A DNA stretch of 64,000 nt from positions 620,001-684,000 of the forward strand of contig OX597836.1 in NCBI GenBank assembly GCA_951406725.2, in the 5' to 3' direction. Positions 3,320 through 63,718 of the stretch are shown piece after piece; the stretch's first letter is position 1; every line of letters begins with the position of its first letter. The DNA is from Octopus vulgaris. Taxonomy: Eukaryota. The position numbers and the translations under genes are program-made. The notes beneath the pieces are model-generated. The model saw only the letters and a list, made by a program, of their open reading frames with translations, was not told where the DNA came from and did not search any database.

Positions 3320-3525
3320 TGGCTTAAAATCTGGGCTCAAGGCCAGCAATTTTAGGGAGGGGAAAGTTGATATAATCAACCTCAATGTTCAACTGGTACT
3401 TATTTTACCAACCCTGAAAGTATGAAAGGTAAAGTTAACCTCAGCAGAATTTGAACTCAGAATGCACAGACAGACGAAATGCCACTATCTTGTCCAGCAT
3501 GCTAACGATCCTGCCAGCTCATAAT

Positions 3526-3570
<45 letters not shown>

Positions 3571-5282: not shown

Positions 5283-6839
5283 ACAGAACATCTTTGCCGG
5301 GGGATGTAATAGGTGTTGTCAACCTTCAACAACCAGTGGACTAAAGCAAGGCTCTTCATTCAGATTTCAATAACTTTGTTAACAATTTATGTGGTTCCAA
5401 GCAATGCAAATTTTCTATATTTGCTCTGCTTTCACATTTACTCCTATCATTTCGATTTGGTTTGTTTGTGAGCTTCATACTTTCTAGGGTTCAACAACAA
5501 GAAATACAGTTCTCTCCTTCAATGGCCAAAATCTTTTCATTTCTCACTTTAAATTATATTTTATTATTATTATTATTATTGTCATCATCGTCATCATCAT
5601 AATTATAATTATTCCACTTTCTATGTCATCTTCTAAAAATATATATTTAAAATATAAGATTTGGTGGGGGAGAGGGTAGGTCACCATTTTCCCAATTTCA
5701 GTTGTTGGGCTGCTCTGGCAAATAAGCTTACTGGTATAGAAACTTTATGGAACAACGTTAAAAAGCCAATAATGAGTTTCAATAATGCTGACCATATTGT
5801 TTCTTCAGGTGGACTGAAAAATAACAAGAGAAAATAGATGTATAAAATCCATACTGAATGAATATTATTGGGTGGGGGTGTGTTGAGTTTTTGTGTTTTG
5901 ATTCTTATTACTTTTTTGTTAACTTTTATTAATGAAGTAGTAAATTATTTTGTAATTAGTAAAACACATACACATATACACAAACAATGCAAAATCATAC
6001 ATTTACATATATATGTTGAAATATTTTTAATACACACTCATACACGTTACAACTGAAAGTCTAGAAATATCCCATGCCCTAAGTTTCACATTCCTGCTCT
6101 TTCAGTTGGTAATCTGAGCTTGTTTTCTCTCGACTTATTGATGTTTCAATAAATTTTTGAATATTGAACAGAGGCTATCAGAAAAACTTTGGATAATTAA
6201 AGAGAAAAATGGATCAGACTACAAGCTGAAAGAGTAGAAATGTAAAATTCAGAGCTCTGGCAATTTAGAGCCTTTCACTTTTAATGTATTACTGAATACT
6301 TTATATGTTTGCATTGAGTTCTATAAGTAATCACTTCTAGGTAAATGAACAGAAATGTTTAAATAACAAAAATGTGATGCTAACTTTCTAGAACACCAAC
6401 ATGATAAAATGAAATGTATCATTGAAGGAACAATGCAAAGGATATGAAAACAACATATGGTTTTGTGTTATTTTTAAGCTAGTTCCCAAGGAAGATCCTA
6501 TATAGCACAAGCTCCACCATATTCTCAAACACCAACAATAGGAAATTTATCCGAGAGAAAATACCTTAGGGAAAAGTTCTGCATACCAATTACACATAGA
6601 AAAGAATCTCACATTTTAACATGAGTTGAAAAATTATGATTTTTTAATTGAAATTATTAGTTCAGTTAGTACACAAATCATCCAGATAAGGGAGTTATGG
6701 CTGATAAATTAAATAGTTGTAATTGTTCAAAAATAAAGCTGATTCAGATGAGAGTGGATTTTGTTTTTAAAATCAACAGGTGAAAGTAGCAGACAGATTT
6801 CCTCAGCAAAGCATATTCTGTTCATTTTGGAAGAATTAT

Positions 6840-17964: not shown

Positions 17965-19662
17965 GTTGACATCACTGTATCAGTGATGTCAACCCCAACA
18001 CACTATATCGGACATAACGTTTGGTGCCCCTGATGTCTTAGCGGCAATAACCGAAATAAAACACAATTCAGCAGTAGGCCCCGATAGGTTCCCTGCTTGT
18101 GTCCTGAAGGTGTGTCGACACCAACTTGCATCTCCCCTTGCTAATCTGTGGAGAAACTCACTGGATGCTGGCTATATTCCAAAAAACCTTCTGTCCCAGT
18201 TTTCAAAAAAGGAAACAAGTCCCTTGCAGTGAACTACCGTCCGATCTCACTCACCTCTCATATCATCAAGGTATTTGAGAGGGTGGTGAGATCTCGAATA
18301 ACCCAATTTCTGGAAAGCAACAGACGGCTGATCTCTAACCAACATGGGTTCCGTAATGGAAGGGACTGCCTAACGCATCTCCTGCATCACTTTGATGACA
18401 TTTTGAGAACTTTGGGAGAGGGCTCCAACACCGATGTCATCTACCTTGATTTCAGCAAGGCCTTCGACAGGGTTGATCACAAGATCCTATTGAAAAACTA
18501 TCCAACATTGGTGTCTCTGGAAAGTTACTGAAATGGATCAAGTGTTTCCTGACAGACAGATCTCAACATGTTGTAGTTGAAGGGGTAAAATCAAGCCCAG
18601 CCAAAGTCAGTAGTGGCGTTCCACAAGGCACTGTGCTGGGCCCACTTCTTTTCATCATCTACATTAATGACATTAATGACATCATCAAGCACAGCAACAT
18701 AAAAATCTTTGCAGATGATTCCAAGCTACAGAAGGTCATAAATGAGGCGAGTGACCGGACATGCCTTCAGTCAGATCTACTGGCTGTTATCCAATGGGCA
18801 GAAAAAAACAATATGCTGCTGAACGAAGATAAATTTGAGTTAATCCACTTTGGAAAAGAGGATGCCCTGAAACTCCCATACTCCCTTCCTTCAGGTGAAA
18901 CTCTCGAGGCATCCAACAACATCAGAGACTTGGGAGTAATTGTGGACAACAACATAAGCTGGGCCACTCATATAAACACCAAAGTTGACATGGCCCGCAG
19001 AATGTGTTCTTGGATTCTCAGAACTTTCCAGTCGAGAGATATCCACACCATTATCCTTCTCTTCTCCACTTTTGCCCGACCCCACCTTGAATACTGTTGT
19101 CCACTGTGGTCTCCCCACACAAAACAAAGTATCATAAAAGTTGAAGCACCTCAAAGGGCAATCACAAAAAAGATAGATGGCATGACAGGCCTCGACTATT
19201 GGGGTCGACTAGAAAAGCTAAAACTTTATTCTCTCCAACGTCGCCGTGAGCGCTACATCATCTGCATGATGTGGAAAATATTCCATCAGCATTGCCCAAA
19301 TGATGTTGGCATCACCTTTAAGGTGCATCCAAGGCTTGGGCCCCGTGCCATCTGCCCAAAACAAAAATCGCACTCTCATCTCATAACAACAATACGGCAC
19401 AATTATTTCACCTCAATTGGCCCCGCTCTCTTTAACATTACACCAAAACACATTAAAACAGAAACAGACCCTATAGGGTTCAAGAAGTCTTTGGACAGAT
19501 TCCTTCAAGAAATCCCGGATAAACCCCCTACACCCGGATATGTCTCTGTAAACAATAACTCTCTACTTGAGTGGGCCATAGTGCCCAAATTCTGACTTGA
19601 AAGACTTCACCAGGTGGTGCTATTAAGTTAGACATGGCCTGGGCCAATAATGGCCGAATCAA
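17965..19662 (+). mobile_element. 5'-truncated CR1/L2-group LINE (ORF2 reverse transcriptase and 3' UTR), two frameshifts
   Basis: Motifs GPD, YRPISLTS, QHGFR, YLDFSKAFD, SGVPQGTVLGPLLF, FADD, RDLGV, RPHLEYC, LQRRR (ORFs 18148-18531 and 18633-19595). Frameshifts near 18190 and 18495; stop at 19595; GGCCA-ATAA-TGGCC stem-loop in the 3' UTR. Confidence 0.95.
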
Positions 19663-20169: not shown

Positions 20170-20214
20170 GGCCAGAGTTCTTTCATCACACTCCTGTGAC
20201 CTCATCAGTGGTCC
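20170..20214 (-). ncRNA. Minimal hammerhead-like motif with one extra nucleotide after A9
   Basis: Minus strand: GGACCA-CUGAUGA-G-GUCAC-AGGAGU-GUGAU-GAAA-G-AA-CUC^UGGCC. It lies in a ~340-bp element between TA tracts (about 19991-20330). Confidence 0.5.
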
Positions 20215-22440: not shown

Positions 22441-23235
22441 GAGGTAGTGCTGGTTCTCATGCTGGTGAAAAGCACCATCCAAACATGGTCGATGTCAGCC
22501 CCCTCTGGTTCCCATGTTGGTGGAGTGTAAAAAGCACTCACTACACTCTCAGAGTGGTTGGCATTAGGAAGGGCATCCGGCTGTTGAAAACACTTCCTGA
22601 TCAGATTGGAGCCTGGTGCAGCCTCCTGGCTTCCCAGACACCTAGCCGAATCGTCCAACCCATGCCAGCATGGAAAAGGGACTTTAAACGATGATGATGA
22701 TGATATACATATATAATTAAATAAATAGATAAATAAAGTATTAGGAAAATATGGGCGTACGCAATATTTTAATCCAACATGCATACATATATATATATAT
22801 GGATCATGCTAGCAGTTCTACCCATGCTAGCATGGAAGACAGACGTTAAATGATGATGATGATGATATGCATATATATATACTGTAGGTGGTTTGCAAGA
22901 TTCTGTGAATTCGTGTGTTGAAGTATATTTTATTGTATATGGGGAGAGTCATTCTATTTTAATACCTTATTAACTAACACACTCAATGTTTTCATCTCCA
23001 CTGATTTACTTATTGAACTTCAGCGATTGAAGCAGTGGTAAGAAGCAACAAAAATACATGTTAATGCAATTGAAACAATTGTTGGATTTATGAGGTGAGA
23101 TCTAAAGTACGGATATAATTTTTTTCTGTACATAATTTTAGTTGTTATATATTTATATATATATATATGCATACACACACATAATATAAATATGCATATA
23201 TGGATATATATATATATACATAAATACACACACAC

Positions 23236-23276
<41 letters not shown>

Positions 23277-23419
23277 ACCTCAAACCCACAAGAGTAAAGA
23301 AGAGAGACAGAGACAGGCAGAAAGAAGGAAAATGCCACTTGTATTTGAACACTATGCAAATATTCTTTCAAAAAATCTTTTCTTTTAATTTTTCCAAATT
23401 TAATTGTTTTCCATACTCA

Positions 23420-23455
23420 CAGTTGAAAAAGTCTCAATGACTGAAACCGGTACTG
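23420..23455 (+). ncRNA. Variant minimal hammerhead (U3-A8 core)
   Basis: CAG-UUGAAAA-AGUC-UCAAU-GACU-GAAA-CCG-GUA^CUG. The C3-G8 pair is replaced by U3-A8 and ACCGGU is a palindrome. Confidence 0.65.
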
Positions 23456-23506
23456 AAATGTTTTTTATAAAATTGTTTTAACATTTTCTATCTTGACCTT
23501 TTTTCC

Positions 23507-23561
<55 letters not shown>

Positions 23562-23747
23562 AGTAGTTGAATGAATTATCTTATTAAGGATAATTCGGTT
23601 AACCGATACCTGGGTAGCAAATTCACGTCAGAAAAACACAGTTGAAGCTACATGCCAAGGGCAGAGATCACGTGCTTTCGTGTGGAAATTTGTGTGTTTT
23701 TTTAATACAAATAAATGAAAGAATGGAGTTGAACGACGAATTAACAA

Positions 23748-23850
23748 AATTCCTTTATTCTCGACATATGTTTCGAAGGCTGCATATTCCTAATTTCGAA
23801 GGAATAAGGGGTGCATTATGCCGCCTTCTCATCAGGAAAAACAAGGAACT
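23748..23850 (-). ncRNA. Type I hammerhead ribozyme motif, canonical core with GUC cleavage triplet
   Basis: Minus strand: AGUUCCUUGUUUUUC-CUGAUGA-GAAGGCGGCAUA...UAUGCAGCCUUC-GAAA-C-AUAU-GUC^GAGAAUAAAGGAAUU. Helix I is 13 bp with a 2x2 internal loop, helix II is closed by GAAGGC/GCCUUC, and ACAUAUGU is a palindrome. Predicted cleavage between 23763 and 23762. Confidence 0.9.
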
Positions 23851-23968
23851 TATGTCAGCATCAAGATGAACAAAAAATAAAGGAATTTTGTTAATTCTTT
23901 CATTTATTTATTTATATATATATATATATGTATATATATTTATATATGCATATATATTTATATGCATA

Positions 23969-24011
<43 letters not shown>

Positions 24012-24329
24012 ACATATATGTTTATCTATCTATCTGTCTATCTATCTATCTATCAATCTATCTATCTATCTATCTAGATATTATCCACCACATTATCTGC
24101 ACTCCATGCTTTTAAGCTAGCTCCTGCAGAGGTCTAATTGTACCTGCAGCCCAAAACTAAGGAGACCAATAATAATAAACTATTTATTGCTCCCCTACCA
24201 TCTCAGATTTATATCACAGAGTATCACATTCGGAGACTTTTGTATCACAGTGACAACTGGAGATCACTGTAAAGCAGCAAGATAAAGGAACTCTTGATTT
24301 TACTATTTCGTATGAGTATGAAGAGATTG

Positions 24330-24686
24330 TTGCTATTTCCAGCTTTGGAACCAACATAGAATTGACTATGGGAAAAGTACTGCTGCATGAGGAGAAGTCC
24401 AACAATTTTCAGTAAAATGTTCTTAACTCGTGTTAACTGACATTGCAAAACTAATTCTTACTGGAAATTGAGTCACTTGAATTCAAAGCTCATGTCTGCT
24501 GGAATCAGTGGAATTTTTGGGATAAACACATTTTCTCCCTTTCCTTTTCCAGTGAGGATTATTGTTTCCAAAAGATGTGGACACATTTGCCTTAGAATAA
24601 GTCTTGTTCCATTGCACAACTTTGTAGGATCCAGATTTCTCAAAAGCATGACTGGAACTCCTTTCTTCAATTTCAGTTTTTGAGAA

Positions 24687-24691
<5 letters not shown>
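24330..24691 (-). mobile_element. Helitron Pif1-like helicase C-terminal fragment
   Basis: PSQKLKLKKGVPVMLLRNLDPTKLCNGTRL...FIPKIPLIP, then frameshifted SFAMSVN and FSHSQFYVG (helicase motifs IV-VI). Confidence 0.9.
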
Positions 24692-24727
<36 letters not shown>

Positions 24728-24763
24728 ACACATACATGCATACTTATATCTATGTATATGCAT

Positions 24764-24794
<31 letters not shown>

Positions 24795-24795
<1 letters not shown>

Positions 24796-25180
24796 CATCA
24801 TCATCATCATCATTTAGCGTCCGCTTTCCATGCTAGCATGGGTTGGACGGTTCAACTGGGTTCTGGGAAGCCAGAAGGCTGCACCAGGCCCAGTCTGATC
24901 TGGCAATGTTTCTACAGCTGGATGCCCTTCCTAACGCCAACCACTCCGTGAGTGTAGTGGGTGCTTTTTACGTGCCACCGGCACAGGTACCAGATGAGGC
25001 TGGCAAATGGCCACAATCGGATGGTGCTTTTTACGTACCACCGGCACGGGGGCCAGGCGTGGCTGGCAACAGCCACGATCGGATGGTGCTTTTTACGTGC
25101 CACCGGCACGAGGTCAGTTGGGGCGGTGCTGGCAACGGCTATGTTCGGATGGTTCTCTTACGTACCACAGACACTGGTAT
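24795..25180 (-). mobile_element. SINE-like repeat with a (GAT)n RTE-like tail and internal ~61-bp tandem units
   Basis: gtggttggcgttaggaagggcatccagctgtagaaac...ccaacccatgctagcatggaaagcggacgctaaatgatgatg on minus. Family copies at about 22445-22703, 25240-25400, 30430-30670, 32975-33115, 38915-39140, 48585-48700 and 54270-54450. Confidence 0.8.
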
Positions 25181-25466
25181 ATATGCATTTGGAAGGGCAT
25201 CCTGCTGTAAAAATCATGCCAAAACTAACTTTACCTGTGCTAGTGTCACATAAAATGTGCTGAGCCCACTCTGCAGGGTGGTGGTGTTAGGAAGGGCATC
25301 TAGCTGTAAAAACCCTGCCAAAGTAGTTTTCTACCTGGCTGGCTCCTGTGAACCATCCAACCCATGCATGTATGGAAAACTGATGTTAAACAATGATGTT
25401 TCTATATATGCATATATATATATATATATATCTATATATGTATATATATGCACATATGTATGAATA

Positions 25467-25505
<39 letters not shown>

Positions 25506-25583
25506 ACTATTCAACTATGAAATAACTATATATAATCAATTTGTATTGTTCTCTCTCTCTCTATATATATATATATATACATG

Positions 25584-25649
<66 letters not shown>

Positions 25650-25786
25650 TATATTAATAAATATATTAATAAATATATTAATAAATATAAGGGTAGCAAA
25701 ATTCTAGAAAATTCTAGAAAAAATTCTCCGCTACCAGTGGTCTAGTGAGAAAGAAAAGATAGTCAAAGACTATATAATATACATTC

Positions 25787-25918
25787 AACAATATAAGGAA
25801 TGGCCCTGATAGGCCATTCGACTTACTAGAAAGAGCAGCCAAACTCAAACCGCTAAATAGTTTAGCGGTTTGAGTTTGGCTGCTCTTCCTACAGGGCCAT
25901 TCCTTATATTATTGAATA
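25787..25918. repeat. Fold-back element: 27-bp perfect inner arms (3-nt loop) plus outer arms, between TA tracts
   Basis: aagagcagccaaactcaaaccgctaaa-tag-tttagcggtttgagtttggctgctctt; outer arms attcaacaatataaggaatggccctg / cagggccattccttatattattgaat. Confidence 0.85.
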
Positions 25919-26725
25919 TATATATATATCAGTAGCAACTCCAGCAGGTGGGCTGTTTAGGCGTAGCCCAAGTATAAATTTAATGAAGTGAACATATATT
26001 TGCTAACTGATTTAATTTCTGCCAACACTGACTTCAAATATGTTATTTCAGCCAATAAATCTGGCTCCTTCTATTGAGTCTGGTTGCAGTTCATATATTT
26101 TGGTTCAGTGTCTGGTGAATGTCTTAGCAGTGCCCTGTTTCAAAAAAAATATTTGTAGCAGATGTTCTCTTGACATCATTCACACAAGCCTGACTTGGGC
26201 TCAGAAGTTATTGCCGTAGTTGTTATCTATAATCATAAAAATTAAAATATTATTCAAATTCAATGTTTTCTGGAAACAACAAATTTTTATAGGATTTAAA
26301 TTCCAATCTATATAAATTTTCTGTTCTATAATATCACAGGATCAAAAATTATCTAGCAGCTTGGACTAATTAGAACGAGTATGGTAGATGAAAAAGACTA
26401 ACTGGCATCTCTTGTCAAGAGTACAGGCGAGAGTCAGATCACTGATGTTTGTTGTGCACTCAGCTGTCGTTATTTCATTGCTGATCGTCTGTGTGTAAAA
26501 ATCAGTTGTGTTTTGCAGGGTTGCCTAAGTTTTACCCTTAACTTTGAAATGGAGAAAGACATAGTGCTAGATATAAAAAATAAGCCATTTGGGGCTAGAA
26601 ATATTGCGGGAAAGCGTGAAATTCTTCGAACAGGCATGTGTCTTATGTGAAATCTGTGATCAACCCTAGTGACTAAATCTGTGATAAGCCTGAGTGATAC
26701 TGATGACCTGGAGTCACCTCTAATA

Positions 26726-26770
<45 letters not shown>

Positions 26771-27218
26771 TCTTGAGCATCTCACCAATGCTGTTGTCAG
26801 TTGTAGTCCTAATTCTGAATGTTCAGTTAAGTGACAAGGTTTATTTGAGTTGCTCCTTTTGATTTTTTGGATTCTATGTTTTATATGTATCTTACATCTA
26901 AGAGGATGTTAACCAATGTTTTACAGCATTATTTGAATCAATTCATGCAGAAGTTAGTGAAAACAGAATTTAATTTGCTATGCATCAATTAGTAATTGCA
27001 TTATGTAAGATTTTAACACACACACATTTATGCATATATTCAGACACACATACTTTGATTGATATATATATATATATACACACACACATACACACACATC
27101 CATATATATATATACAAACACATTGTATGTATAAATTTATACAATATCCTAATACATACATACAATCATGCACATATGTATATGTGTGTGTATATATGGC
27201 TATATATAACAAATCACA

Positions 27219-27264
<46 letters not shown>

Positions 27265-27725
27265 AATGCATACAGTTCAAGTGCAGATTTGATTGATTTT
27301 TTTTAATTATATTCTTTTGATTTTTATCAATATATACGTATACTTATGTGTATATATATCTATTGATAAGGTGAAACACTGTCCCTCAGGCAATGAAGCT
27401 AGGTGTTCATACTTTTCATTGTTGCTAGGAGGGCTACTTACACAATTTTTGCCTGGTTTTCCCATCACTTTTAACAAAGCATTTTGATATCCCTGTAAAA
27501 ACATGCCGGAGAAAAATCAAAATGCCCCCTGTTTTAATAACTTCATAGTAAAAATAACAAAAGTACATGGCTGCAAATTTTATGGGAGTGGATAATAAAT
27601 TTCACTGATGCTGGTCCTCACTATGATTGAATGAAAGTAACATTTGAGTTCAGTAGGATTTTAATAATAATAATAATGATAATAACTGTTTCTAGCTCCA
27701 CCTCCACCACCACCACCACAATAAA

Positions 27726-27758
<33 letters not shown>

Positions 27759-30133
27759 GTAATAAATTTGAATATTTCAAAATACAGTTGTTGATATCTA
27801 TGCACACACACACACGCGCGTGTGTGTATGTGTGTGTGTATCTTGGATGTTGTGCTGTTTTAGTGCTAAGAACCTTGCTGAACATATTTTTGAGAATATT
27901 GTATTTATTTATCTTGTTGTTGCTTTTCCTTCAATGATGATGATGATGATGATGATGATGATAAGAAGAGTGGAACTATCAGTGCAAATATTCTTTTCTT
28001 ATTTTTGCACAAGGCCAGAAATTTCAATGAATGATTCTGCCAGCTCACCACCTTAAACAATGCAAATATTACAACACTTTAGTTTTCTTTACAGTTTCTC
28101 TCAATTCCCTGTTGACTGAAATAAATTATTAATGATGGTGATGATGTTAATTGAAGTGATGAGTAGAATTATGATTTTCTTATAATTAAGCTCAAAGCCA
28201 ACTTGGCAGGGAATACAGTTGACTGAAGGGGAACAACTTTATCACTGATATTTATTCTGGTAAAGCATTCTGTTTGTAACTTGACTTGTTCTGTCCTTGG
28301 AAAATGATTTGACAACAAATTATAGGAACAAAAAAAAATGAGTTGTTGAGAATAATTTCTAACAAGAATTAATTTCTAACATCAGTTAAACTGATTCCTG
28401 TAATTGATCTCTGAAGAATAAAAAACAAAATTGACTATGGTGTGATTTGAACTCAGAAAGTACTAAAAAAGCCTACAAATCACTTCATCAGGGGTGCTAC
28501 CAATTCTATCTTGTCCCACAAATTAACAATAGTTTCTAACAGGACCAAAATATGTGGGGAGTATATGGTCAATGAGACTGACTCCAGCATTTGACTGCAA
28601 ATTTTCTAGTCACAACTCCCAAAGTCACTAAGTGACCTAGAGGAATTAAAATAGTTCAAGTTGGAAACAAAAGAAAACGTTTTGGGTTCAGCTCACCAGC
28701 GAACTACATCTTTGTCTATAGTGATGAATGTCAAAATATATCATCCTCCTCACCTCAGCATAGAGGTCTGGGCAATTATGTTAAGTCAGATTTCAGGAAT
28801 AGTCTGAGGAGACAGGGTGCTATGTTAAGTTTCAGGAGAAATAACTAAATGAGCAGTTGTTCATATCCTGTCACCAGCAATTATATATCTGTCAAAAAGC
28901 AATCAATTCTCAAATGCCACTGAGGAGGCCTCTTCATGGTCACTGGCTTACCTTAAAATAGTAGCAAAATATCTCTAAACTTACAGTTATTGATAAATTA
29001 CTGTTTGATTTAAGTGTAATTGATAAATTGAAAATTAGATAACAGGACAAAATGGTTACAATAGGATTGTCCCACTCCCTTTTTTAAATAATTTCTTCAT
29101 GGTCTTAGCCAGATATGATGTTGTATAACGGATAGCAGTATACTGATGGCATCTATTTTAGTTTACTGACTTAAAAAGGATTTGGGTTTCAAATGTAAAA
29201 AAATAAGACTAAAACAAGGTATTAAAAATTTACATGAATGAGGTATTAAAAATGGTTTTACAAATACCAATTACCAAATTTACACCATCAGGTGATTTAA
29301 TACCAAATCTACACCATCAGGTGATTTATTACATGTAATGACTCAGAAAAATTCAGTCTGAGAGAACAAGTTTGAATCTGATTGTACTGATGCTGGAAGA
29401 GACCAAACTATGTTGAAATAATTGTCCTTTGCTTATTACAACAATATATTCTCTGCAGGGACTATAATTCCAAAATTATTTTATAGTTATGTAAGAAATA
29501 GTCCAACAGTAGTGATTTTTCAAATTTTACACTCTAACTATAAATAATAATTCCTATTAGAAAAAAGATTCCCATCACAAAAGATCAGTTACTGAAACTG
29601 TTATTTGAGGTCTGTCTAATCATATGGATGTCGCAATAAGTTCATTGACCAATTCATATTTTCTCTCTCTTGTATTTGTTCCGTGCTTCAAGTTTCTGCA
29701 ATTCCCTTCCCTACTTCTGTCACATCTTATTGCATTCTAGGGAATAGGCAGGAATTCATATTTTAGTATAATATTGAGAAATGAAAGAAAGAAAACAAGA
29801 AAGAAAAAAAACCCATTTATATTTTCTTGTTTTACTTGCTGAGTCTGGATGAAAGAGTAGAGTCTATCAGGCTTTTTGGCCCCGAGACTTGCACGGCTGA
29901 GACAATTAATGCTCTCATTAAATTGCTGCTGGTCAACATCCACAGCAAAGACAAAGTAAAGAGAAAGGAGCTGGATGCACCAAGAGGGTGAAAGGGGAAG
30001 AGTCAAGTAGGTTGGCAGTGCCCGAGTGGAGGTATGAGATAAGTCAACTTCAAGGAGCAGAGTCCATTATAGTATCTTTCACACACACACACACACAAAT
30101 TTTATTGTATACATTTTTCCTATTTTGTAGTAA

Positions 30134-30167
<34 letters not shown>

Positions 30168-31161
30168 CATATAAGCAAACTAGTATAGGATGTTGACAGC
30201 TCCATAAGGAAGTGCTGATTACTGAATGTGGATGGAACTCATAGAGGGAGACCCAGGAAGATATGGGATGAAGTACTGAAGTACTGGATACTGGACCTTT
30301 TGGGGGAGATGACAAACAACTGTGCTATCTGGCACCTAGCTGTACTCAAGAAAACTTGTTGTCCACAGCAGAAGCATTAAGGCCACTGCCTCTGATAAAG
30401 AGGACTGGCCTACAAGAGCTCTGTGTCAGTTTTATGTAAAAAGCACTCATATCAGTGCCATGTAAGAGCACTTGTACTGGTGCCACATTAAAAACAGCAA
30501 GTGTACAGTGTAAAGTGGTTGACATTAGGAAGGGCATCATCCATAGAAACCAAGCCAAATCAGACTGGAACCTAGTACATCTCTTGGGCTTACCAGCTCT
30601 AGATGAACTGTCCAACTTGTGCCAGCATGGGAAATGGACGTTATAGGATGAGGATAATGATGATGATGATGTTATACATATATATATACGTGTGTGTGTG
30701 TGTGTGTGTATTGGTTTATGAATTTGAGAAAAATGTCATTATCAAAAAATGAGTGAATAGTCATTGTTGTAGAAGGTACAGTATCAGTCCATCCATGTTT
30801 TCAAGTAGTGCTTGAGATTTATTGCCGTTAAAAGAGAGATGATTGATAGAGTAACACAGGAAGATACTCTTAAGTTCTTTCTTTATGTAAGTCAATGCAA
30901 ATTTAATGTGTGGTGTGCAGATTGCATACGAATGATACACAGTCCAAGAAAGTTGAGTCATACTATTAATATAAAACTTGGCATAGTTGAATGTATCAGC
31001 AAGTAGATCGTTTATGCAATGAAAGAAGAGAACTGGCAACAAAATCTAGCTTTTGCATACATATACTGCATATATATACGTATACACACACACACACACA
31101 CACACATATATACATACACATATTATGTATACATAATATACATATATTGCATATATACGCA

Positions 31162-31212
<51 letters not shown>

Positions 31213-31325
31213 CACACACACACACACATATATATATATACATACACATATTATATATACATAATATACGTATATTGCATATATACACATATATATTATA
31301 TATATATATATTCATACACACTCAC

Positions 31326-32560
31326 ACACAAAGGGAAGTCAAAAATTATCTGCACCATAACATATCTTTGTTATTGTCACACTGCTTTCTGCGCATGCAT
31401 GATTATAGTTGGTACTATTGTGGTCATGTGATCGAAGTTCGAGCCTGATCATGCCATTTTTCTTTCTGGCTTTACAGTGTAATCATGGCCACTTCTCTAG
31501 CAATGTGCACCAAAGAGGAACAAAGCACAGTGATCCGATTTCTCTGGTTGAAAGGTATGTCAGGTGCTGAAATTCATCAGAGGCTTTTAGTACTATTCAG
31601 AGGACAGTGCAGTACTATGTAGAATTGTGTGTGAGTGGATCACAAAGCTTCAAAGTGGCTGGACAAACGTAACACACGAAGAATGGAGCAGGATGCCCGG
31701 CAACCTCCACCACTGATGAGAAGATTCAGCAAGCTTGATTGATGGTAATGGTGAACCAGTGAGTTATCATCGATGAGGTAGCTCGTTCTCTGCAGATTAG
31801 TCATGATTCTGCCTATCAAATCATCCATGATGAGCTTGGCTTCAATAAAGTCTGTGCAAGATGAATACCAAGAGAGCTCACTGCAGAGCACAAGTGCAAA
31901 CATCTTGAGGTCTGCCAACATTTACTCAATCACTACAACAATAAGAGCAAGGAACTTTTGAGCAGAATAGTCACAGGAAATGAAACGTGTGCCCATCATT
32001 ATGAGGCAGAATCCAGGAGAGAGAGTATGTAATGGAAACATCCTGTCTCATGAGCAACGAAGAAATTCAAGACTCAGTCTTCTGTGAGAAAAGTGATGCT
32101 AACCTTTTTTGGGGGACTCAAAAGGGCCTATACTACCAAGAAAAGGGGTGTACAATCAACAGTGCTTTGCTGGCCAACAAACTGAAGCCAGCAATTTGTA
32201 CCAAATGCTGAAGCCTATTGTCGAAGAAAGTTTTGTTGTTGCATGACAATGTATGCCCACACATGGACACCCAGACTGTTGAAACCATTAACCAATTGGG
32301 TTTTGAGGTGCTGTATCACCTGCCTACAGCCTACATCTCGCCCTTTGGACTGCTCAAAGATGGTTTACGAGGTTGTTCATTTCCTATGGATGAAGATGTG
32401 AATGAAGAGGGTGCATAAATAGTTGCATGACCAACTGAAAACCTTCTTCTTGGAGGAAATACACAAACTTGTGGACCGTTGGACCAAGTGCATCAAAAAG
32501 GAAGGAGACTATACGGAAAAATGACGTACTTGTTTCTCCCCTGCTTTTGTGTAAATACAT
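31326..32560 (+). mobile_element. Near-full-length decayed mariner
   Basis: ATG at 31485 gives MATSLAMCTKEEQSTVIRFLWLKG; further IVTGNETCAHHYE, VLLLHDNVCPH and a C-terminal KLVDRWTKCIKKEGDYTEK* ending at 32523; multiple stops and frameshifts. Confidence 0.9.
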
Positions 32561-32579
32561 CGTGAAGACAAGAAAAAAA

Positions 32580-32900
32580 CTGGCATATTGCTAGTTATGA
32601 CAATGAGGGTTACAGTTGATGCAGTCAATGGAACATCCTGCCTGTGAAATTAACATGCAAATGGCTGAGTACACCACAGACAGGTGTACCTTAAATGTAG
32701 TTCTCAGGGAGATTCAGCAGGAGACAGAATGTGACAAGTTCGACTCTTTGAATTACAGGTACTACCCATTTTTGCCAGCTGAGTGGACTGGAGCAATAAA
32801 GTGAAATAAAGTGTCCTGCTCAAGGTCACAATGCACCTCAGGGAATCGAACTTATGACCTTAAGGTCATGAGACAATTACCCTAACCATTAAGCCTAACA
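32580..32900 (-). mobile_element. tRNA-derived SINE with a V/CORE-like domain
   Basis: Minus strand: B box gttcgattcc followed by ttgtgaccttgagcaggacactt. Confidence 0.65.
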
Positions 32901-33124
32901 ACTATATATGTATGTGTGTGTATGTATCTCTTGCTCTCTCTTTCTCTCTCTCTATATATATAATAAATCAACATCATCATCGTTTAACATCCGCTTTCCA
33001 TGCTGTCATGGGTTGGATGGTTTGACTGAGGATTGGCAAGCCAGATGGCTGCATCAGGCTCCAGTCTGACCTGGCAGAGTTTCTACAGCTGGATGCCCTT
33101 CCTAACGCCAACCACTAATATAAA

Positions 33125-33545
33125 TATGATGGAGTACTCAAATGAAACTGGAATTTTGCAATATTATTTATTCACTTAATTTTACCTTTATCGTTTTGAA
33201 AGTATTCTCCAGTTGCAGTCCAGATACATTTTCCATTGTTTGAAGCAATCTTGGAACCCTTGTGAAGTGATTGTCTTTTAACACTTCTGTCATTTTTTCT
33301 TCACCTCTGCCTCATCTACAAAACGTTTCCCTTTAAGGACTTTCTGCATCAAAAAATGTTGCAGGAAGCAAGATCAGGTGAACAGGGAGGGTGGGTAAGT
33401 AGGGGGTCATGTTATTTTTAGTAAACAACTGTCTTACACCCACCCAAGGCGATGGGCACAGATGCATTGTCATGATGAAACCATCACTTTCCACTTTTCC
33501 ACAGGTTGGGGTGTTTTCATCTCACTGCATCTCACAAAATGTTTC
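33125..33545 (-). mobile_element. Mariner C-terminal fragment
   Basis: Minus strand gives HHDNASV and THPPCSPDLASCNIF-like motifs and GEYFQ near the end. Confidence 0.7.
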
Positions 33546-33649
33546 AGAACTGGAGCCTGGTGCAGCCTTCCAGTAGGTCATCCCAGTCTAACCATCCAAC
33601 CCATGCCAGCATGGATAATGGTCGTTAAATGATGATAAGGATATATAAA

Positions 33650-34110
33650 TATATATTATTAAATACTAACGTATTTGCTTTGTGTATTTTCCAGTGACTG
33701 CAATAGTGTAGAGGAGTATATAACTCTCATGTTGCCTTAGTTAAAACACCTTAGATTCATGGATAGTTGAGGTATCTCACCCTCAATCCTAATTGGGTGT
33801 GATGGACATTGATGTTTCACAATCTCTGTGGCTTTTCAACATCATGTACCCACCTGGGTTAAAGGCGAGTCACCTAGCCATTCCAATGACTTATATGCTC
33901 ATGGCTTGGAAAATCATGAGCTGGTATGCCTGGATTTTACAAGCCATGAGCATATGTCATTGAACTGGCCAGGTGACTTGCTTTCAACCCAAGTGAGGTA
34001 TTTTAACACTGATGTCATAAGAGTCATATACTCTGCTATGCTATTGCAGCTACCAGAAAATACACAAAGCATATACTTTAGTATATGTATTCAATAATAT
34101 TTATTATACT
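33650..34110. mobile_element. Older imperfect fold-back element with a hammerhead-like motif in the unpaired part of the left arm
   Basis: 33851-33918 is inverted at about 33933-33995, and 33673-33760 is inverted at about 33995-34075. Centre near 33926; (TA)n on the right. Confidence 0.7.
33800..33844 (-). ncRNA. Variant hammerhead-like motif (U3-A8 core), weak helix II
   Basis: Minus strand: UGAUG-UUGAAAA-GCCACAGAGAUUGU-GAAA-CAU-CA-AUGUC^CAUCA. Helix I is a perfect 5 bp, helix III is 4 bp, helix II is poorly paired. Confidence 0.5.
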
Positions 34111-34132
34111 ATAGTTGCCTTTAATTCTTGTA

Positions 34133-34213
<81 letters not shown>

Positions 34214-34214
34214 C

Positions 34215-35395
34215 CAAACCAAGAGAAAAATATAATTTTCTGTGATAGGAGGATTCTAATGAGATGACAAGCAAAAAGTCTCAAGCCATCTAAATGGGTC
34301 ACTAAGGGATAACAAACAATCCTATCTCAAACAAACATTGCTTGAGATGGAAAATAAGTCAAACACATGAAAAGGAGAGGGCACAAAAAGAAGCCAGGGC
34401 TGTCAAAAACATTAAGACAAACCACAAAGATTTGTATAGATATGCAAAAGAGTCTGCTTCAGTATGGTACAAAATAGGGCCCCTATTCAGAGAAAATGGC
34501 TCACTGGCTGCAGACTCCCAGAAGGTCAGCGAAATACTGAATGTGCAATACAAGAGTTTTCACCACTGCACTGGGGCACTTGCAAGTAGCTATGCCTGAT
34601 GAGTTCTTTGGCACCACAGCTCTACACAAAGAAATGGCAATTATTGTTGGCATCCAAATAGAGAAAACTGATGTGATATCAGCCATTGATAAAATGAGCT
34701 CAAATTCAGCTACAGGCCCTGATGGATTCCCAGTAATCATCCTAAAGAAATGTAAAGGGGTCTATTGAGACCACTTCAGATTCTCTCCAGAGCTTCCTTG
34801 CAACTGGGAGACTTCCCAAAAAGTTAAAGGATGCATGATATGCTTGTCCATAAAAGAGGTAGCAGAGCAGATGCTAAAAATTATAGAACTGTCTCTCTAA
34901 CCTCCCATGTCAGCAAAGTCATGGAATGCATTGTCAGGAAGAAACTCATTGCATTCCTTGAAGACAATGACTTGCTCCCTGACACCCAGCATGGCTTCCA
35001 CTCAGGCAGAAGCTACCTTACACAGCTTTTGTAGCATTATGACTGATTGTTGAAACAATTAATGAATCGCTCAAAAGTGGATGTAATATATCTTGACTTT
35101 GCAAAGGCCTTTGATAAAGTTGATCATAGGATGATATGTAACAAGCTATGGAAACTCAGCATAGCCAGGAAACTTGGAGAAAGGTTGTATGACTTCTTAA
35201 AAGACAGAAGCCAGGCTGTGACAGCCAATGGAGCCCTCTCAAAGGAGACAATAATAGAGGTGAAGTTTCTCAGGGAACTGTATTGGGGCTGCTGCTGTTC
35301 ATCGGGGCTCTTTCAGACAAGCCATCAGTTACACAGGCAGCCACACTTACTAGCTATGCCAACAACACAAAAGTAGTACAAGTAGTCAAAAATGT
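34215..35395 (+). mobile_element. Decayed CR1/L2-group LINE RT fragment related to the 18-19.6 kb element
   Basis: ATGPDGFP, YRTVSLTSH, QHGFHSGRS and YLDFAKAFDKVDH lie in shifting frames with stops; both ends run into microsatellites. Confidence 0.9.
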
Positions 35396-35418
35396 TTGCA
35401 TATTCTTAACATGTGTGC

Positions 35419-35468
<50 letters not shown>

Positions 35469-36108
35469 ATAGGCATACATATAAATATATGTCTGTTTTG
35501 CTATTTTATCTATCAACCATTTGTTAACTTATATATCTCATCCATCCATCCACCACTGCATAAATTTGGGGTTTTCATGTTTTTTTCTTTTGCTGTTGAA
35601 AGCGAGCAGGTTAGCAGGACTCCACTGGTAGATGCTCTCGAGGTCTTTGTTTATGTAAATCAATGCATGTTTAGTATGTGGTGTGTAAATTGCATGTGAC
35701 TGATACATAGTCAAGGAAAGTTAGGATGGCATCAATAAAAGGAAAGGAAAGAAAGGAGAGAAGAAAAGGAAAAAAAAATTACATCCACTGGCACATACAC
35801 ACACATACTCATGAACATGCAAACATAGATATGAATACATGCACTCACATGGATACATAAACGAAGCACTGTAGCAGAATCAAGGGTAGGAGGATCAAGT
35901 CTAGGGGAGCGGTAGCAGGAAAAGCAACAACTACAATAACAAGGAGGAGGATGATAATGACAACAACAATAATTGCAGCAATAAAAAGGAGGATTTCTGA
36001 CAATACGTAGCATTATAGAAATAAAAAGGTTTGTTCAGGCAAGGTTTGAAGGATACAGAAAAGACTGAAAATGGGTATAAATGCACAACATACAAGTATG
36101 TGTGTATA

Positions 36109-36155
<47 letters not shown>

Positions 36156-36852
36156 ATACGTACACTGACTGAAGACAAATATTAAAGGGAGAGGTTTTAA
36201 AATAAGCAGCCATGCACATAACAACTTGGTTGGGAAAAACAAAAACAAAATAAAAAACATTAAAAGCAGCAATAGCAAAAGAAAAAAAAATTAAACAATT
36301 AAACAACAATAGAGTTTTAAAAAAGCATTAACAATAGCAACAATGACAACAACAATGGCAAAAGAAAAATAAATACAAATATTTGATAATTTTTGTTGTA
36401 ACTAATTTTGTTAATATTGTATTAATGAATATAATCAATATATTATGAACAAATAAATCAAGATTAGCTAGATGTAATATATGAAACAGAGAAATTTTCA
36501 TTCAAAAACAAATAATTACTAAAGAATATTTTAATGATCTGAATATGTAAAAACAGGTAAAAATTGAATTTTTTTTTAAATGACAGAAAGGAACAGAAAA
36601 CTGAAATTGCAAGTAAAAATAAAATTTGAAAAACAGAACTTAAAGATTTTCATAATTGTTTTCAATTGTCTAAGCTTTTGCAAGGATTAAAGAATGTATA
36701 TCAAGAAATCTAAAGATTATATATGTACAGGGGTGAGTGTGTGTGTCTGCGTGAGCAAGTATCTATATGCATGCGTATGTATGCATACATGCATATATAT
36801 ATATATGTGTGTGTGTGTGTACATACAGACATCATACATACATACATACATT

Positions 36853-36897
<45 letters not shown>

Positions 36898-37083
36898 CAT
36901 ATACATACATACATACACACACACACATAGGTGAGGCATGGCTGTGTGGTAAGAAGGCTCTGAGTTCAGTTCCACTGTGTGGTACCTTGAACAAGTGACC
37001 TCTACTATAGCCCTGATCCTTGTGAGTGGATTTCTTAGATGGAAACTGAAGGAAGCCAGTTATATATATATATATATATATAT

Positions 37084-37556
37084 GAAAAAACAAGTCAAGA
37101 TAGAAAATGCTAAAATAATTTTATAAAGAACATTTCAGTACTGGTTTCAGTCATTTTGAGACCTTTTTAACTGTAACGATTAAATAATTAAATTTAGAAA
37201 AATTAAAAGAAAAGTTTTTTTAAAAGAATATTTGTATAGTGTTCAAATATAAGTGGCATTTTCTTTGTTTCTGCCTTTCTCTGTCTCTCTTGTTTACACT
37301 TGTGGGTTCGAGGTCGTTATGAATTCACAACGACCTCGAACCCACAAGTGTAAACAAGAGCGACAGAGAAAGGCAGAATGCCACTTATATTTGAACACTA
37401 TACAAATATTCTTTTAAAAACTTTTCTTTTAATTTTTCTAAATTTAATTATTTAATCGTTACAGTTGAAAAGGTCTCAAAATGACTGAAACCAGTACTGA
37501 AATGTTCTTTATAAAATTATTTTAGCATTTTCTATCTTGACTTGTTTTTCCATATA
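37084..37556. mobile_element. ~470-bp near-perfect palindromic (fold-back) element, probable Penelope-like pseudo-LTR hairpin
   Basis: Arms of ~235 bp are centred on GAATTC at 37321-37326, with only a few mismatches and one ~10-bp indel. Flanked by (TA)n. A single-arm relative lies at about 23275-23510. Confidence 0.85.
37457..37504 (+). ncRNA. Variant minimal hammerhead (U3-A8 core), right arm of the 470-bp palindrome
   Basis: CGUUACAG-UUGAAAA-GGUC-UCAAAAU-GACU-GAAA-CCA-GUA^CUGAAAUG; same family as 23420-23455. The left-arm copy (37131-37178, minus) has UUAAAAA, i.e. a G5A change. Confidence 0.6.
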
Positions 37557-37631: not shown

Positions 37632-39539
37632 GATGTATATATAAATGCATATATAGTATGTAGATAGGATTAAAATCCAGCTATGTTTTCATGAAGCATA
37701 TCTGCATATTTCAGTATTCCAAAATTGCATGTAGAAGTTAAAATTGTGTGAGGTGTGCATAAGAGCTGAAAAATGCAGGAAAATAGTTTTTATAGAGTAA
37801 TTACATGTAAAAAGCAGGTGATTGGAAAAACTAATAAATAACATAAAAAAATGTTTCTGTTCTGCTGTTTTGTTATATAAATATATTACACAAGCCTGAA
37901 ACATACATGCTAAAGGATTTCAAAAGATCCCTATTTGGTTTGACTTCATTATTACAACGAATGCAACTTGATGCCAGTACAAATTGGTCGGTCTTGACTC
38001 CACCTATGTGAATACTCTAACAACAATTTGGAGTAGTTTGTTATATTTGACTCAATTTGAAAAAATTCTGGTACCATGCAATGCTTCCTAGTGTAACATG
38101 AATAAAAAAAAAAATTGTGCTTGTGTTTCTCCTCCACCACTGCTTGATAACTAGTGTTGGTTTGTTTATGTCTCTGTTTGTTGGCAAAGGAGACTAATAG
38201 AAGTATAAGGCTTTAAAAAATTACTGAGGTTGATTTATTCAACTGAACCCTTTAAGGTGATGCCCCAGCATTGCTGCAGTCCAATGAGTGAAACTACATA
38301 GTTGCAAAGAAAGCATCTTAGCCACACAGCCATTTCTGCACCTATTTTACAATACAATGCACAAACATAATACACATATTTACATACATATACAAACACA
38401 CACACACACATATATATTATATATATATACATACATATATATGTATATTTATAAATACATACACAAATCTGTGTGTGTGTGCAAAATTATTGTCTTGATT
38501 CTTAAACCAGTAGAGTACATTGTGTTCTTAGTAAAGCTCTTCATTTTATGTTGTTCCAATTCAGTCCTTTGTTAAAAGGTAACCCTGTAACAGACTAGCA
38601 TTCTATTTAGTAGTGAATGTTGGCCTGCTCTTCAAACCAGCAAGGCGGCATCATTTGAAAGCTAAAACGATGCAAGGAAGTGCATTGTGACTAGCAGAAT
38701 ATAAGAACAGCCAATAGCCTGGGCAATACAGGCACACATAGATACATATGCATAGATTGTTTGAATTGGTGTATAAATTTTATATAGTAAGAATAAGAAG
38801 GTTGTTAGGATTTATTTTGTGAGAGACAACAATGCCAGATAAATAGTTTTTATTCAAATTCTAACTACCTTCTTTATCTGAATATATGTGTTTGTGTATG
38901 TGTGTGTGTGTGTGATGTCATCCAGTTGTAAAAATCAAGCCAAAGCAGACCTCACCAGTGCTGATGTCATGTAAAAAGCACTCATGCTACTCTGTAAAGT
39001 GGTTGGCATTAGGAAAGGCATCCAGCTGTAAAAACCATGGCAAAAGAGAGAGTAAAGCCTGGTGCAGCCCTCTGGCTTGCCGGTTTCTGTCAAGCTATCG
39101 AACCTATGTCAGCATGGAAAGTGGACATTAAATGATGATCTCACACACACACACATTACAGATAGACAGACAGATAACGCTAGAAAATCTGTTGCATCTT
39201 TGGCAAGAATAAAAGGTCCTTCCAAGCCTACCCTTAATAGAGAGTAACACAATGAGAGAATGAAGAGGTGAGAAAGTGAGTAACACGGACCAAGTACTAG
39301 AGACATGAGTAAAGGTAACAGAGACCTGGGTGACAGCAGGATGAATAACAGACACTTGAATGATAAGAACAATTGGAGAAGAATGAGATGCTATCAAGGG
39401 GGTCAAAGATATAGCCCTGGCAGTGTGTGTTTGTGTGTGTACACACACACATCTACATATATGTATTTACATAGAAATACATACATGTACATACATTTTA
39501 ACATTTGTTTTATCCTGCCTGGATAGGCAGGTAAGTCTT

Positions 39540-45732: not shown

Positions 45733-47718
45733 TATGCACACACATGCACAACATACACATTAAATAAGGCCCTGATCTTGCAAGAAAATTTTCTCCTCTC
45801 TTGGTTGGACATTGACATTGCTTAAGCAGCTAGAAAAATGATCTTTTAATACCAAGTATTGGTCCCATATTTTCTATGTAGACCTCTTCAGTATCACCAG
45901 GGATTCCTCAAGCTCTGCTCAGATTACAGACCTTGTTGGTCATTTTCTTCTCCCTCAAATAAACCAGCACTTTCCTAGCCTAACTGGAGGTTTATACAGG
46001 AATGATGGTCTTCTCACAACCACTAGTATATCTTGGCCATCCATTGAATGTATCAGGAAGGCCTTTCACAAGTTATTTAAAAATTTTAATCTATCTCATT
46101 CAAAAACTGTACTAAAGTAGCTAACCTCTTTATCTAAGTTTATATCTTTATAATCATCTATATATTTCTTCACTAGAGCTCATGATAAATGTGAATGTTT
46201 GTAAGCATGCCTTTACATGCTTGCATGTATGGACATATACACTTATGGGTATATATGTATGTGTGTATGTACAAACGTATGTATGTAGATACAATCACTG
46301 TATTTGAAATTGAAACAAATAGGTCATTATGCTGTTTGTCCTCTGTTTTCTGTTTTGGGATATAGAATATAGCCCAGGGTTATAATACAAAACACTATAC
46401 AGCCCAAGATGTCATACAATGGCACTGAAATTGAAACCCTGCTTGCAATGCAAACTTCTTAAGCATACAACCGTGTCTGTACATAATATGTGTGTGTGTG
46501 TGTGCGTGCACGTGCATGCCACACACACACACACACACATGCACTCACACATATCATATAGCGGTGGAAGGAGGTAAACTGATTAAGACAGTAACGGAGC
46601 ATCAGTTGGTGTTAATCTGAGATGGCCAAACCCCACATCACCCAACATTACACCATGTCATTTTATATCACCTGTACAGTTAATCAGCTTAAATAAGATA
46701 TATATCTTTCTCGTTTAATACTTTAACAATATTAATTACACTCACACACCTTAAAGCAATGTCACATTGTGTTGTTATTGCATTATTGGCGTTATGAATG
46801 GTTTGGCTTGAAGGTATAGCAGATAGATGGTGTTGGTAGAATCCATTGACAAGTTAGAGGATCAATTCTTGTCAGTGGTATCGTAATCTTCAATGACTCT
46901 CTGGATATATGAGTGTAAATAGGCAACACATGGTGCTTTTGTTCATTGCTAATCAACAACCTGCTCAATATAGTATCCAATCAAGTATCTTTTGGTAAGC
47001 TCATTATTGTCTTAGACATAGAAACTGCATTAATAGTTAAAGAACTGTGTACTCAGTCAATCTGCTTAATAAAACAGCAAACATTTCCCACAACAATGTA
47101 ACTTTCCTGTGGTTGCATGACCTGCAGAATGCCACAGCCATAAACTTTCTACTTTATCTAAAGCAGAAGCAATATGAACTACTCTGGATATGAGATAATC
47201 ATAGATAGCCATGAATGGATGACAGCAACTCGGAACACAAACCAGTAGAGAAAACCATTCTACTTTTGATACTATGAATCTTTATTTTACTGCTGGTGAA
47301 TTATTAGTGACTATCAATGAACCACTTATGATGATAACCCTATGATATTTGCAACTGTATAGTTACTCATCCTTACTTGATGTGTCTAGCAGCTACATTG
47401 CCCTAAACAGACATCCAACAAGCTTTAAAATAGGGAGCGAGATATGGAATATCTACATTGTCAGTTTAACTGTGTAATTATTAACAATATCTTTTACTAT
47501 CTCTAAACTAGTAAAATAGGAAGTATGTGAGCCAGCAAGGCAGTTTCCATGCTGCATAGTTGGCTCCTCATCTGAAAATACATTCTAACAATCTTTTACA
47601 ATTTGAACTAAATAATCACTGAGGTCACTGAGAGAAGTTCGTAGAGTTGCAACAGCACTTTCAGCATACAATCTTCTATTCATGTACACATCTCTCTCTC
47701 TCTCTCCACACACACACA

Positions 47719-49498: not shown

Positions 49499-50534
49499 AA
49501 TTTATAAATACCTTAATGCAGTTACACATAGATACACACATGTTTGTTGGTATGTTTATGCATATGTATGCACATACACACACATACATGTGTGTGTGTG
49601 CATTTATGTGCAAAAGTGTTGATGTATTCATAAATTCAAAATTTCATAGACAATATCAAGGAAATTGGGAGAGTAGTGGAGGTGAGAGGGTGTGTGTGTG
49701 TGTGATAAGACGTGTGTATGTATGTGTGAGAGTGAGAGATGGGGAATATTCTGCAATAGGGGTGGTAGTGACTTAATCCTTAATGATTTTTCTATGATTC
49801 ACATTTAAGACCTTTTGATCCACTTTTCAACCCTCACACATAACACACACACACACACACACGCACGCACACACACACACATACACACACACACAAACAC
49901 AACTCAATTTCAAACAACCATTACAGCAACAGCAACCACAACTATCACAACAATAAAGACCAGCCAATCTTGTTGGCAGCTAGTTACATCTTGACAGGAT
50001 ACTGTCAGTATTAATCTCTTAATCCTCTTTTCACCTTTGGCAGTCAAAAAAGAAAATGTTATTTTTATTAATATTATTATTATTATTATCATCATCATCA
50101 TCATTACTATAAGGATGGTGTCTTGTAGTACTGTTGCTGACAAATGCTTTGCAGTATTTAGTTATGTCCCAAATTGAAATCCTACAGGGACTTGATAAAA
50201 TTAGGATCAATATATTTGGTTGTTCCCTCTTTAAAAAATTTCTGTCCTGATAAGAAACAATGACTTAGTATTAAGCTAGCAAACTGGAGAATTGTTAGCA
50301 TGTTGGGTAAAGTGCTTAACAGTATTTTCCTTGTCTTATGTTCTGAGTTCAAATTTCCACTGAGGTTGACTTTGTCTTTCATCCTTTGGGGCTTGATAAA
50401 ATAAATGCAAGTGAACACTGGGGCCAGTGTAACCCACTTATCCCCTTAATGTTCCTCTCTCTAGTGGCTATGGTGCAAGAAGTTGCATGGTGAATGGGCT
50501 GAAAGGATTGAGGAAAAATACCCTCCTCTTCAAC

Positions 50535-58054: not shown

Positions 58055-58318
58055 ACGAATGAGAGAGAGAGAGAGAGGGAGGGAGGGATACAAAAGTATT
58101 ATAGATACATGTGTGATTGTATTCATATATATACATCTATGTACATGTAAAGATATATGCATACATAAATTTAGGAATAGACAAGCTCACACAATCATCT
58201 GCCTTTGTATTTACACATATTGGTACATTTGTATACACACAAATATAACAAATATCTATCTGTCTATCTATACATAAACATGCATACACACATATGCATA
58301 TATATATATACATTTGTT

Positions 58319-63559: not shown

Positions 63560-63718
63560 TATGTATGGATCAAAACAGTTAGTACTCTTGAGTTTCAAGC
63601 ATGATGCTAGTTGTCAGCCATTTTGAATTTAAATTCAAAATGGCTGACGACTAGTATCATACTTGAAATTCAAGATTACTAACGAATTTGAATCAAAGTG
63701 TTTTAATCCATACATATA
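63560..63718. mobile_element. Palindromic MITE-like element next to a TA tract
   Basis: Loopless palindrome centred at 63630/63631 (gaattt|aaattc) with ~53-bp arms and 5 mismatches; outer repeats atatgtatggatcaaaac / gttttaatccatacatat. Confidence 0.75.

Follow-up and report, generated by a model that had tools for sequence, protein, structure and literature searches.

Hammerhead-type motifs with a U3-A8 core pair in two families of short repeats from Octopus vulgaris

Two families of short repeats in the genome of Octopus vulgaris appear to carry type I hammerhead ribozyme motifs in which the usual C3-G8 core pair is replaced by U3-A8. The DNA analysed is a stretch of 64,000 nucleotides (contig OX597836.1 of assembly GCA_951406725.2, positions 620,001 to 684,000), referred to here as the window. 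We put at roughly 70% the probability that the repeats, called families A and B, are stubs of elements whose parent RNA cuts itself behind position 17, after an NUH triplet. U3 would pair with A8 where other hammerheads have C3-G8, and the cleavage would serve to process tandem transcripts. Cutting would probably take place in a dimer formed through the short palindromic helix III, possibly with the assistance of a protein; we infer both the cleavage and the use of dimers. The repeats themselves may derive from Penelope-like retroelements, either as 3' stubs or as non-autonomous forms, and family B is possibly a non-long-terminal-repeat (non-LTR) retrozyme.

The initial annotation of this DNA had placed the core word UUGAAAA at three sites, and all three are present (23423-23429 and 37465-37471 on the plus strand, 33839-33833 on the minus strand). 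The bare word carries little meaning, because UUGANAA occurs 84 times on the two strands of the window. Exactly these three of the 84 words pass a relaxed three-helix descriptor that requires helices I-III, GAAA and UH, which upholds the assignment of the motifs to the hammerhead type. In 100 block-wise shuffles preserving dinucleotides, the relaxed descriptor gave a mean of 0.44 matches, with at least three in 2 of the 100, while a strict descriptor, which finds two matches in the real sequence, gave a mean of 0.02 and never two in the same shuffle (0/100). When thresholds were fitted afterwards to each site, A-like motifs (two seen) appeared at least once in 14 of 1000 shuffles and a B-like motif (one seen) in 6 of 1000; the two family-A matches belong to a single family and therefore count statistically as one event. 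Cores with a single mismatch (C3-A8 or U3-G8) never pass the strict descriptor in the window. The three sites each combine a Watson-Crick 3-8 pair, here U3-A8, with U4, G5, A6, A9, G12, A13, A14, the A15.1-U16.1 pair and H17.

The change to U3-A8 is a trait of the families and not the outcome of copy-by-copy decay, because it is kept in all three family-A copies in the window and, as far as the best-supported 40 of 90 variant rows show, in the family-B contigs described below. Treating A and B as two unrelated families is a fair division, as the initial annotation had it, because they have no BLAST match to each other and can be joined only in a gappy, low-scoring alignment.

Family A is a unit of about 235 bp. 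Three copies are found in the window rather than the two first counted: A1 stands alone, and A2 is paired with the previously overlooked A3 (hammerhead at 37173-37136 on the minus strand, core UUAAAAA) in a head-to-head arrangement that spans 37082-37553. The two arms are joined without a spacer; a head-to-head layout, which family B also has, was absent from the initial annotation. The A2 and A3 arms are 98.2% identical, and each is 89-91% identical to A1. The hammerheads of A1 and A2 have helices I, II and III of 3, 4 and 2-3 bp. In A1, GAAA lies at 23443-23446, helix III is the palindrome ACCGGU, and the predicted cut falls after A23452 (all cut positions are deduced from hammerhead numbering). 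In A2 and A3 the palindrome is broken to ACCAGU, a change of the kind that CpG decay would typically cause. A3 keeps U3 and A8, but it departs from the required core at G5, which has become A. Such a change is lethal to hammerheads, and A3 is probably dead. The pairing of helix II in the related copies A1 and A2 (AGUC/GACU versus GGUC/GACU), with loops of 5 and 7 nt, is as the initial annotation had described; its use as compensatory support is not sustained, for the difference is a one-sided change from A-U to G-U. RNA reading through the 37 kb pair is predicted to fold, whichever strand is transcribed, into a single long hairpin (about -345 kcal/mol) that would bury the hammerhead motif.

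The family-B copy in the window is a foldback (33648-34105), and the 99 nt missing from its inverted arm comprise the entire hammerhead. In the other arm, the motif has a 4-bp helix III, a GUC triplet and a predicted cut after C33805, and the helix III palindrome is broken. The core proposed at this site is indeed present within a hammerhead fold, but helix II is not intact in this copy: it has only 2 bp, C33830 standing opposite U33821. Loss of the helix by a 3-nt deletion was considered and rejected, since contigs of the family show a point change and no such insertion or deletion.

Contigs assembled from public sequencing runs provide a wider view of family B. The site B region is matched in 20 of 24 listed public runs from five coded organisms. 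Contigs aligned to 33660-33925 number 222 in run X4, 166 in X8, 243 in X9 and 4 in X1, from two coded organisms, and most are less than 90% alike to the window copy, indicating a multi-copy family. The following frequencies are depth-weighted shares, in the order X4/X8/X9, from the best-supported 40 of 90 variant rows. A family consensus around the core, which by the initial annotation would speak against the motifs if it lacked helices I-III, was obtained for family B only, and its common letters restore helix II. G at 33821 (81/81/87%) supplies the third pair, and with A at 33826 (86/83/85%) and A at 33824 (96/97/96%) the common letters yield a 4-bp helix II whose loop resembles CAAAAA, the loop II of the Rfam model Hammerhead_HH9, provided that 33825 is unchanged. 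Position 7 varies and is U in 67/61/67%, giving the core UUGAUAA. The 10.1-11.1 pair is G-C in 25/16/24% and G-U in most, and helix III is fully palindromic in 26/31/21%. No variant at 33839 (position 3) or 33834 (position 8) appears among the best 40 of 90 rows. Because these rows reach down to variants found in two to five contigs per run, a C3-G8 majority would have shown. Together with the three family-A copies, this bears out the view of U3-A8 as covariation.

Taken together, the common letters and loose contig ends suggest a canonical type I hammerhead for family B, with UUGAUAA as its core and with elements for a loop I-loop II contact, which we infer; such elements are not evident in family A. 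Contigs that match only 33801-33844 represent a diverged sister subfamily that carries the hammerhead with an 80% match; their loose ends lie at 33799/33801 and 33844/33850, and the downstream flank is homologous at 19 of 30 bases (compared by hand). In record 4 of X1, a single record in which both ends are tied together, two pairs of distal helix I are changed on both sides, 33851-33795 from G-C to A-U and 33852-33794 from U-A to C-G (also by hand). These double changes are the best structural evidence here, with few sequences behind them. Three X9 contigs return after 258-263 nt, as head-to-tail copies would, the letters in between not being known. Opposite-strand joints occur at several points (among the 15 of 19 joints listed). 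Depth over the B hammerhead peaks in X4 at about 1350, against 300-560 alongside; the two ends of the aligned stretch have peaks as well, and the depth is therefore not read as a sign of selection.

None of the window copies is likely to be active. A1 lacks a tandem partner, A2 has lost its helix III palindrome and would be buried in the read-through hairpin, A3 carries the G5A change, and the helix II of B is broken.

Table 1. Elements of families A and B and their hammerhead motifs in the window
Feature	Positions	Strand	Remarks
Element A1	23275..23508	+	solitary; between (TA)n tracts
Hammerhead A1	23420..23455	+	3-bp proximal helix I; core UUGAAAA 23423-23429; 4-bp helix II; 5-nt loop
Element B, hammerhead-bearing arm	33648..33925	-	multi-copy family
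Hammerhead B	33794..33852	-	distal helix I 4 bp and proximal helix I 5 bp around a UAC bulge; core UUGAAAA 33839-33833
Element B, inverted arm	33926..34105	+	without the 99-nt segment equivalent to 33752-33850
Element A3	37082..37323	-	left arm of head-to-head pair; ends in (TA)n
Hammerhead A3	37136..37173	-	core UUAAAAA 37170-37164; U3 and A8 kept, G5 changed to A
Element A2	37324..37553	+	right arm of head-to-head pair
Hammerhead A2	37462..37499	+	core UUGAAAA 37465-37471; 4-bp helix II; 7-nt loop; predicted cut after A37496

The novelty of U3-A8 implied by the initial annotation does not hold: the core variant has been in print since 2011 and has been tied to Penelope-like elements since 2014. 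As far as the searchable text of the sources cited here extends, "several" natural examples of the same covariation of the 3-8 pair were described in 2011, in a paper that also credits U3-A8 ribozymes with in vitro activity (Perreault et al. 2011, PMC3088659); no matching core words were found in the supplement text of that paper, its figures lying outside the text search. U3-A8 was later found in the Cercyon elements of Schistosoma, after a descriptor based on C3-G8 had missed the variant; about 1,300 U3-A8 matches were counted in the Penelope-like elements of Schistosoma mansoni, and UUGAAAA and UUGAUAA are both among the cores given in the supplement (Cervera and De la Pena 2014, PMC4209133). 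The Penelope-like hammerheads in that study are dispersed single motifs or opposite-strand pairs 100-700 bp apart; the minimal ones typically have an extra base after position 9 and a G10.1-C11.1 pair, and cleave poorly in vitro. Penelope-like elements also show inverted adjacent copies and a target bias toward (TA)n and other microsatellites (PMC8557442), and the same type of layout, with an adjacent inverted copy at the 5' end and microsatellite, (TA)n-type flanks, is present here.

With these Penelope-like hammerheads, those of Cercyon included, the octopus families share the type I topology, the U3-A8 core (UUGAAAA being listed for S. mansoni, 4), a short helix III that is palindromic in A1 and in part of family B, and an occurrence mostly as dispersed single copies and as opposite-strand pairs 100-700 bp apart (PMC4209133). 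Family A differs in its 4-bp helix II, against 7-8 bp in the Schistosoma forms; family B differs in being canonical rather than minimal and, like family A, has no extra base after position 9. The non-LTR retrozymes of animals, a group expressed as small circular RNA, consist of tandem units, 170-400 nt long, with type I hammerheads of the canonical form (Cervera and De la Pena 2020, PMC7229834), and a 2026 preprint argues for their origin from Penelope terminal repeats (bioRxiv 10.64898/2026.07.22.740005). They are close to family B in several respects: a short non-coding unit, a 4-bp helix II, an A-rich hexaloop, a bulged extended helix I, a helix III that is palindromic in part of the family and a few joints that would fit head-to-tail copies. 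They differ in that a U3-A8 core is not mentioned for retrozymes in the accessible text of PMC7229834, and the window copy of family B is head-to-head and not tandem. The consensus of Hammerhead_HH9 (RF02275), with its CAAAAA loop II and UAC-containing helix I bulge, is like the common letters of family B, whereas the core of the model is C3-G8. The remaining new point would thus be the presence of U3-A8 in a canonical, retrozyme-like scaffold, which was not found in print; a search for a canonical retrozyme with U3-A8 found none, a weak negative in that figures and several supplements were not covered.

Several observations weigh against self-cleaving, Penelope-derived parents. The best Rfam match to these sites, with Hammerhead_HH9 at 37451-37516, scores 12.3 bits against a gathering threshold of 52 (E 2.1); this sub-threshold alignment is in register with the hammerhead of A2. 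A hammerhead search of 33740-33900, around site B, gave no match. In none of the window copies is the hammerhead fold the minimum-energy fold (A1 -4.9 versus -7.0 and A2 -5.8 versus -8.2 kcal/mol). The starts of A1 and of both arms of the 37 kb pair cluster around one position, to within about 10 nt (23275, 37323), which random 5' truncation does not predict. The U3-A8 evidence for family A consists of the three window copies, and a minority C3-G8 subfamily of family B may exist. The sixth pair of proximal helix I is found in only 25/45/25% of aligned family-B depth. Family A departs from the typical minimal Penelope hammerhead (PMC4209133): position 9 is not followed by an extra base, and the 10.1-11.1 pair is A-U or G-U. 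Finally, no open reading frame (ORF) for a reverse transcriptase or GIY-YIG domain was found linked to A or B, and no ORF adjoins any copy, although in Penelope-like elements such a motif would sit in the terminal repeat beside an ORF of this kind. The 5' peptide of family A (23273-23374 on the plus strand, 37223-37321 on the minus strand) presumably resembles the end of a GIY-YIG domain, but searches gave no support: Pfam was blank for both family-A peptides, a homologue search was also empty, and all three matches of a profile search were repeat-inflated proteins of no relevant family. With no coding link, and with two Penelope hallmarks absent from family A, it is better supported that these motifs work like Penelope hammerheads than that they are such hammerheads.

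Some of the same observations would fit motifs that are hammerheads by descent and no longer cut unaided, the fold being retained either for recognition or binding by the element's protein or as a protein-dependent cutter. For one Penelope element, from Anolis, cutting by the hammerhead requires the protein, insertion in vitro can do without the hammerhead, and RNA-seq showed no ends at the cut site (PMC11167929); the poor cleavage of minimal Penelope hammerheads in vitro (PMC4209133) and the weak helices of family A point the same way. Family B, in contrast, keeps all catalytic positions and the loop II and bulge features across diverged subfamilies, and the literature ascribes in vitro activity to U3-A8 ribozymes (PMC3088659), so that loss of unaided cutting is an improbable account, albeit the strongest competitor to self-cleavage. 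A far weaker account is that the likeness arose by chance in repeats rich in AT, or that C3-G8 cores decayed separately in each copy. UUGANAA words are common (84), the thresholds are partly post hoc, and Rfam is negative, with no hammerhead at gathering score among the best 150 of 314 rows of a whole-window scan. Scans elsewhere underline how such patterns arise randomly. The family-A pattern has 12 loci in metagenomes, none with homologous flanks and 10 of them within stop-free frames of more than 100 codons, and the family-B motif has 45 genome loci and 3 viral loci; 58 of these 60 microbial and viral matches are without helix I and a closable helix III, and the two with a helix I of at least 3 bp and a closable helix III are taken as chance. 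Against this explanation stand the rarity of A-like (14/1000) and B-like (6/1000) motifs in shuffles, the failure of any C3-A8 or U3-G8 core to pass the strict descriptor, and the fact that the common letters of family B mend exactly the broken pairs. We regard chance or decay as very unlikely overall and, on these sequence comparisons, as largely refuted for family B.

The units could instead be foldback DNA elements, resembling miniature inverted-repeat transposable elements of about 460-470 bp with TA flanks, that multiply as complete units, with a hammerhead-derived sequence as passenger. Both families do occur as foldbacks with TA-rich ends, the family-A copies share nearly one 5' point, and loose ends behind 33923 (five contigs in X8, seven in X9) match the central hairpin at 15 of 22 bases (by hand). 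Yet A1 is a single arm, and the 37 kb inversion looks local, because its arms are 98.2% alike but only 89-91% alike to A1. The opposite-strand joints of family B are spread over several positions, the three X9 contigs behave as head-to-tail copies would in returning after 258-263 nt, and a foldback DNA element has no reason to keep compensatory RNA pairs. Whole-unit copying of DNA is accordingly judged unlikely, and derivation from self-cleaving parent RNAs with a U3-A8 pair remains the preferred reading.

Other hammerhead-like sites lie in the window. At 20170-20211 on the minus strand (core at 20208) is a minimal C3-G8 hammerhead of the typical Penelope form, with an extra base after position 9 and a 6-bp helix II; this one relaxed match compares with a shuffle mean of 0.11 and was reached in 11 of 100 shuffles. 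A third head-to-head pair at 63570-63691 has CUGACGA with a damaged helix III in one arm and CUGACAA, with a mismatched 3-8 pair, in the other. In all three head-to-head pairs, the hammerhead of at least one arm is damaged or missing. Short foldbacks also occur at 61434-61637, 25772-25929 and 6044-6287, the first two with TA-rich ends; a permissive hammerhead scan of these three found none. Rfam microRNA matches over foldbacks and microsatellites were dismissed, since they score far below gathering thresholds and reflect only hairpins.

The surroundings are AT-rich (GC 25-41% per 2 kb), with 142 microsatellite tracts and many decayed mobile elements; no tRNA genes were found in the window. A frameshifted LINE-type reverse transcriptase (RVT_1) lies at 17987-19595 on the plus strand, its highest-identity named relative coming from Argonauta hians (63% identity across 74% of the query). 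To the right of element B, decayed reverse transcriptase fragments at 34306-35376 on the plus strand (RVT_1 E 0.001, below cutoff) are apparently LINE-type and unlinked to that element. A fragment of a Pif1 helicase 2B domain at 24476-24700 on the minus strand (E 4.6e-15) is probably a Helitron remnant. We take a fragment with YRNDG at 45842-46117 on the plus strand to be like a Penelope-type reverse transcriptase, with no match in Pfam or homologue searches. An abundant short dispersed repeat that is SINE-like (22465-22689, 24813-25398, 30476-30677, 32954-33116, 33544-33656, 38919-39139 and 54261-54467) has one copy abutting element B and is presumably an octopus repeat, and a second repeat family is found at 400-1360, 3330-3959, 50278-50423 and 58318-58445.

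What these repeats add to the known U3-A8 hammerheads is two more families, in an octopod for which no hammerhead survey was found; the literature search, which found none for octopus or any cephalopod, is a weak negative with thin coverage of subscription papers and figures. Family B offers a natural set of U3-A8 motifs in a canonical scaffold with a covarying helix I, and so a convenient test of peripheral contacts against the swap of the 3-8 pair. The findings also suggest that surveys relying on CUGANGA descriptors underestimate the number of retrozymes in animals. A bolder and quite tentative possibility is that family B is an active retrozyme-like lineage common to related species, in which U3-A8 has become fixed in a tertiary-stabilised canonical hammerhead across subfamilies with otherwise diverged flanks, yielding an efficient ribozyme that makes circular RNAs, while head-to-head insertion silences copies. 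If this is true, family B would be a natural, efficient U3-A8 ribozyme whose circular RNAs have been missed by C3-G8 surveys, and head-to-head insertion would silence single copies by burying the ribozyme in double-stranded RNA.

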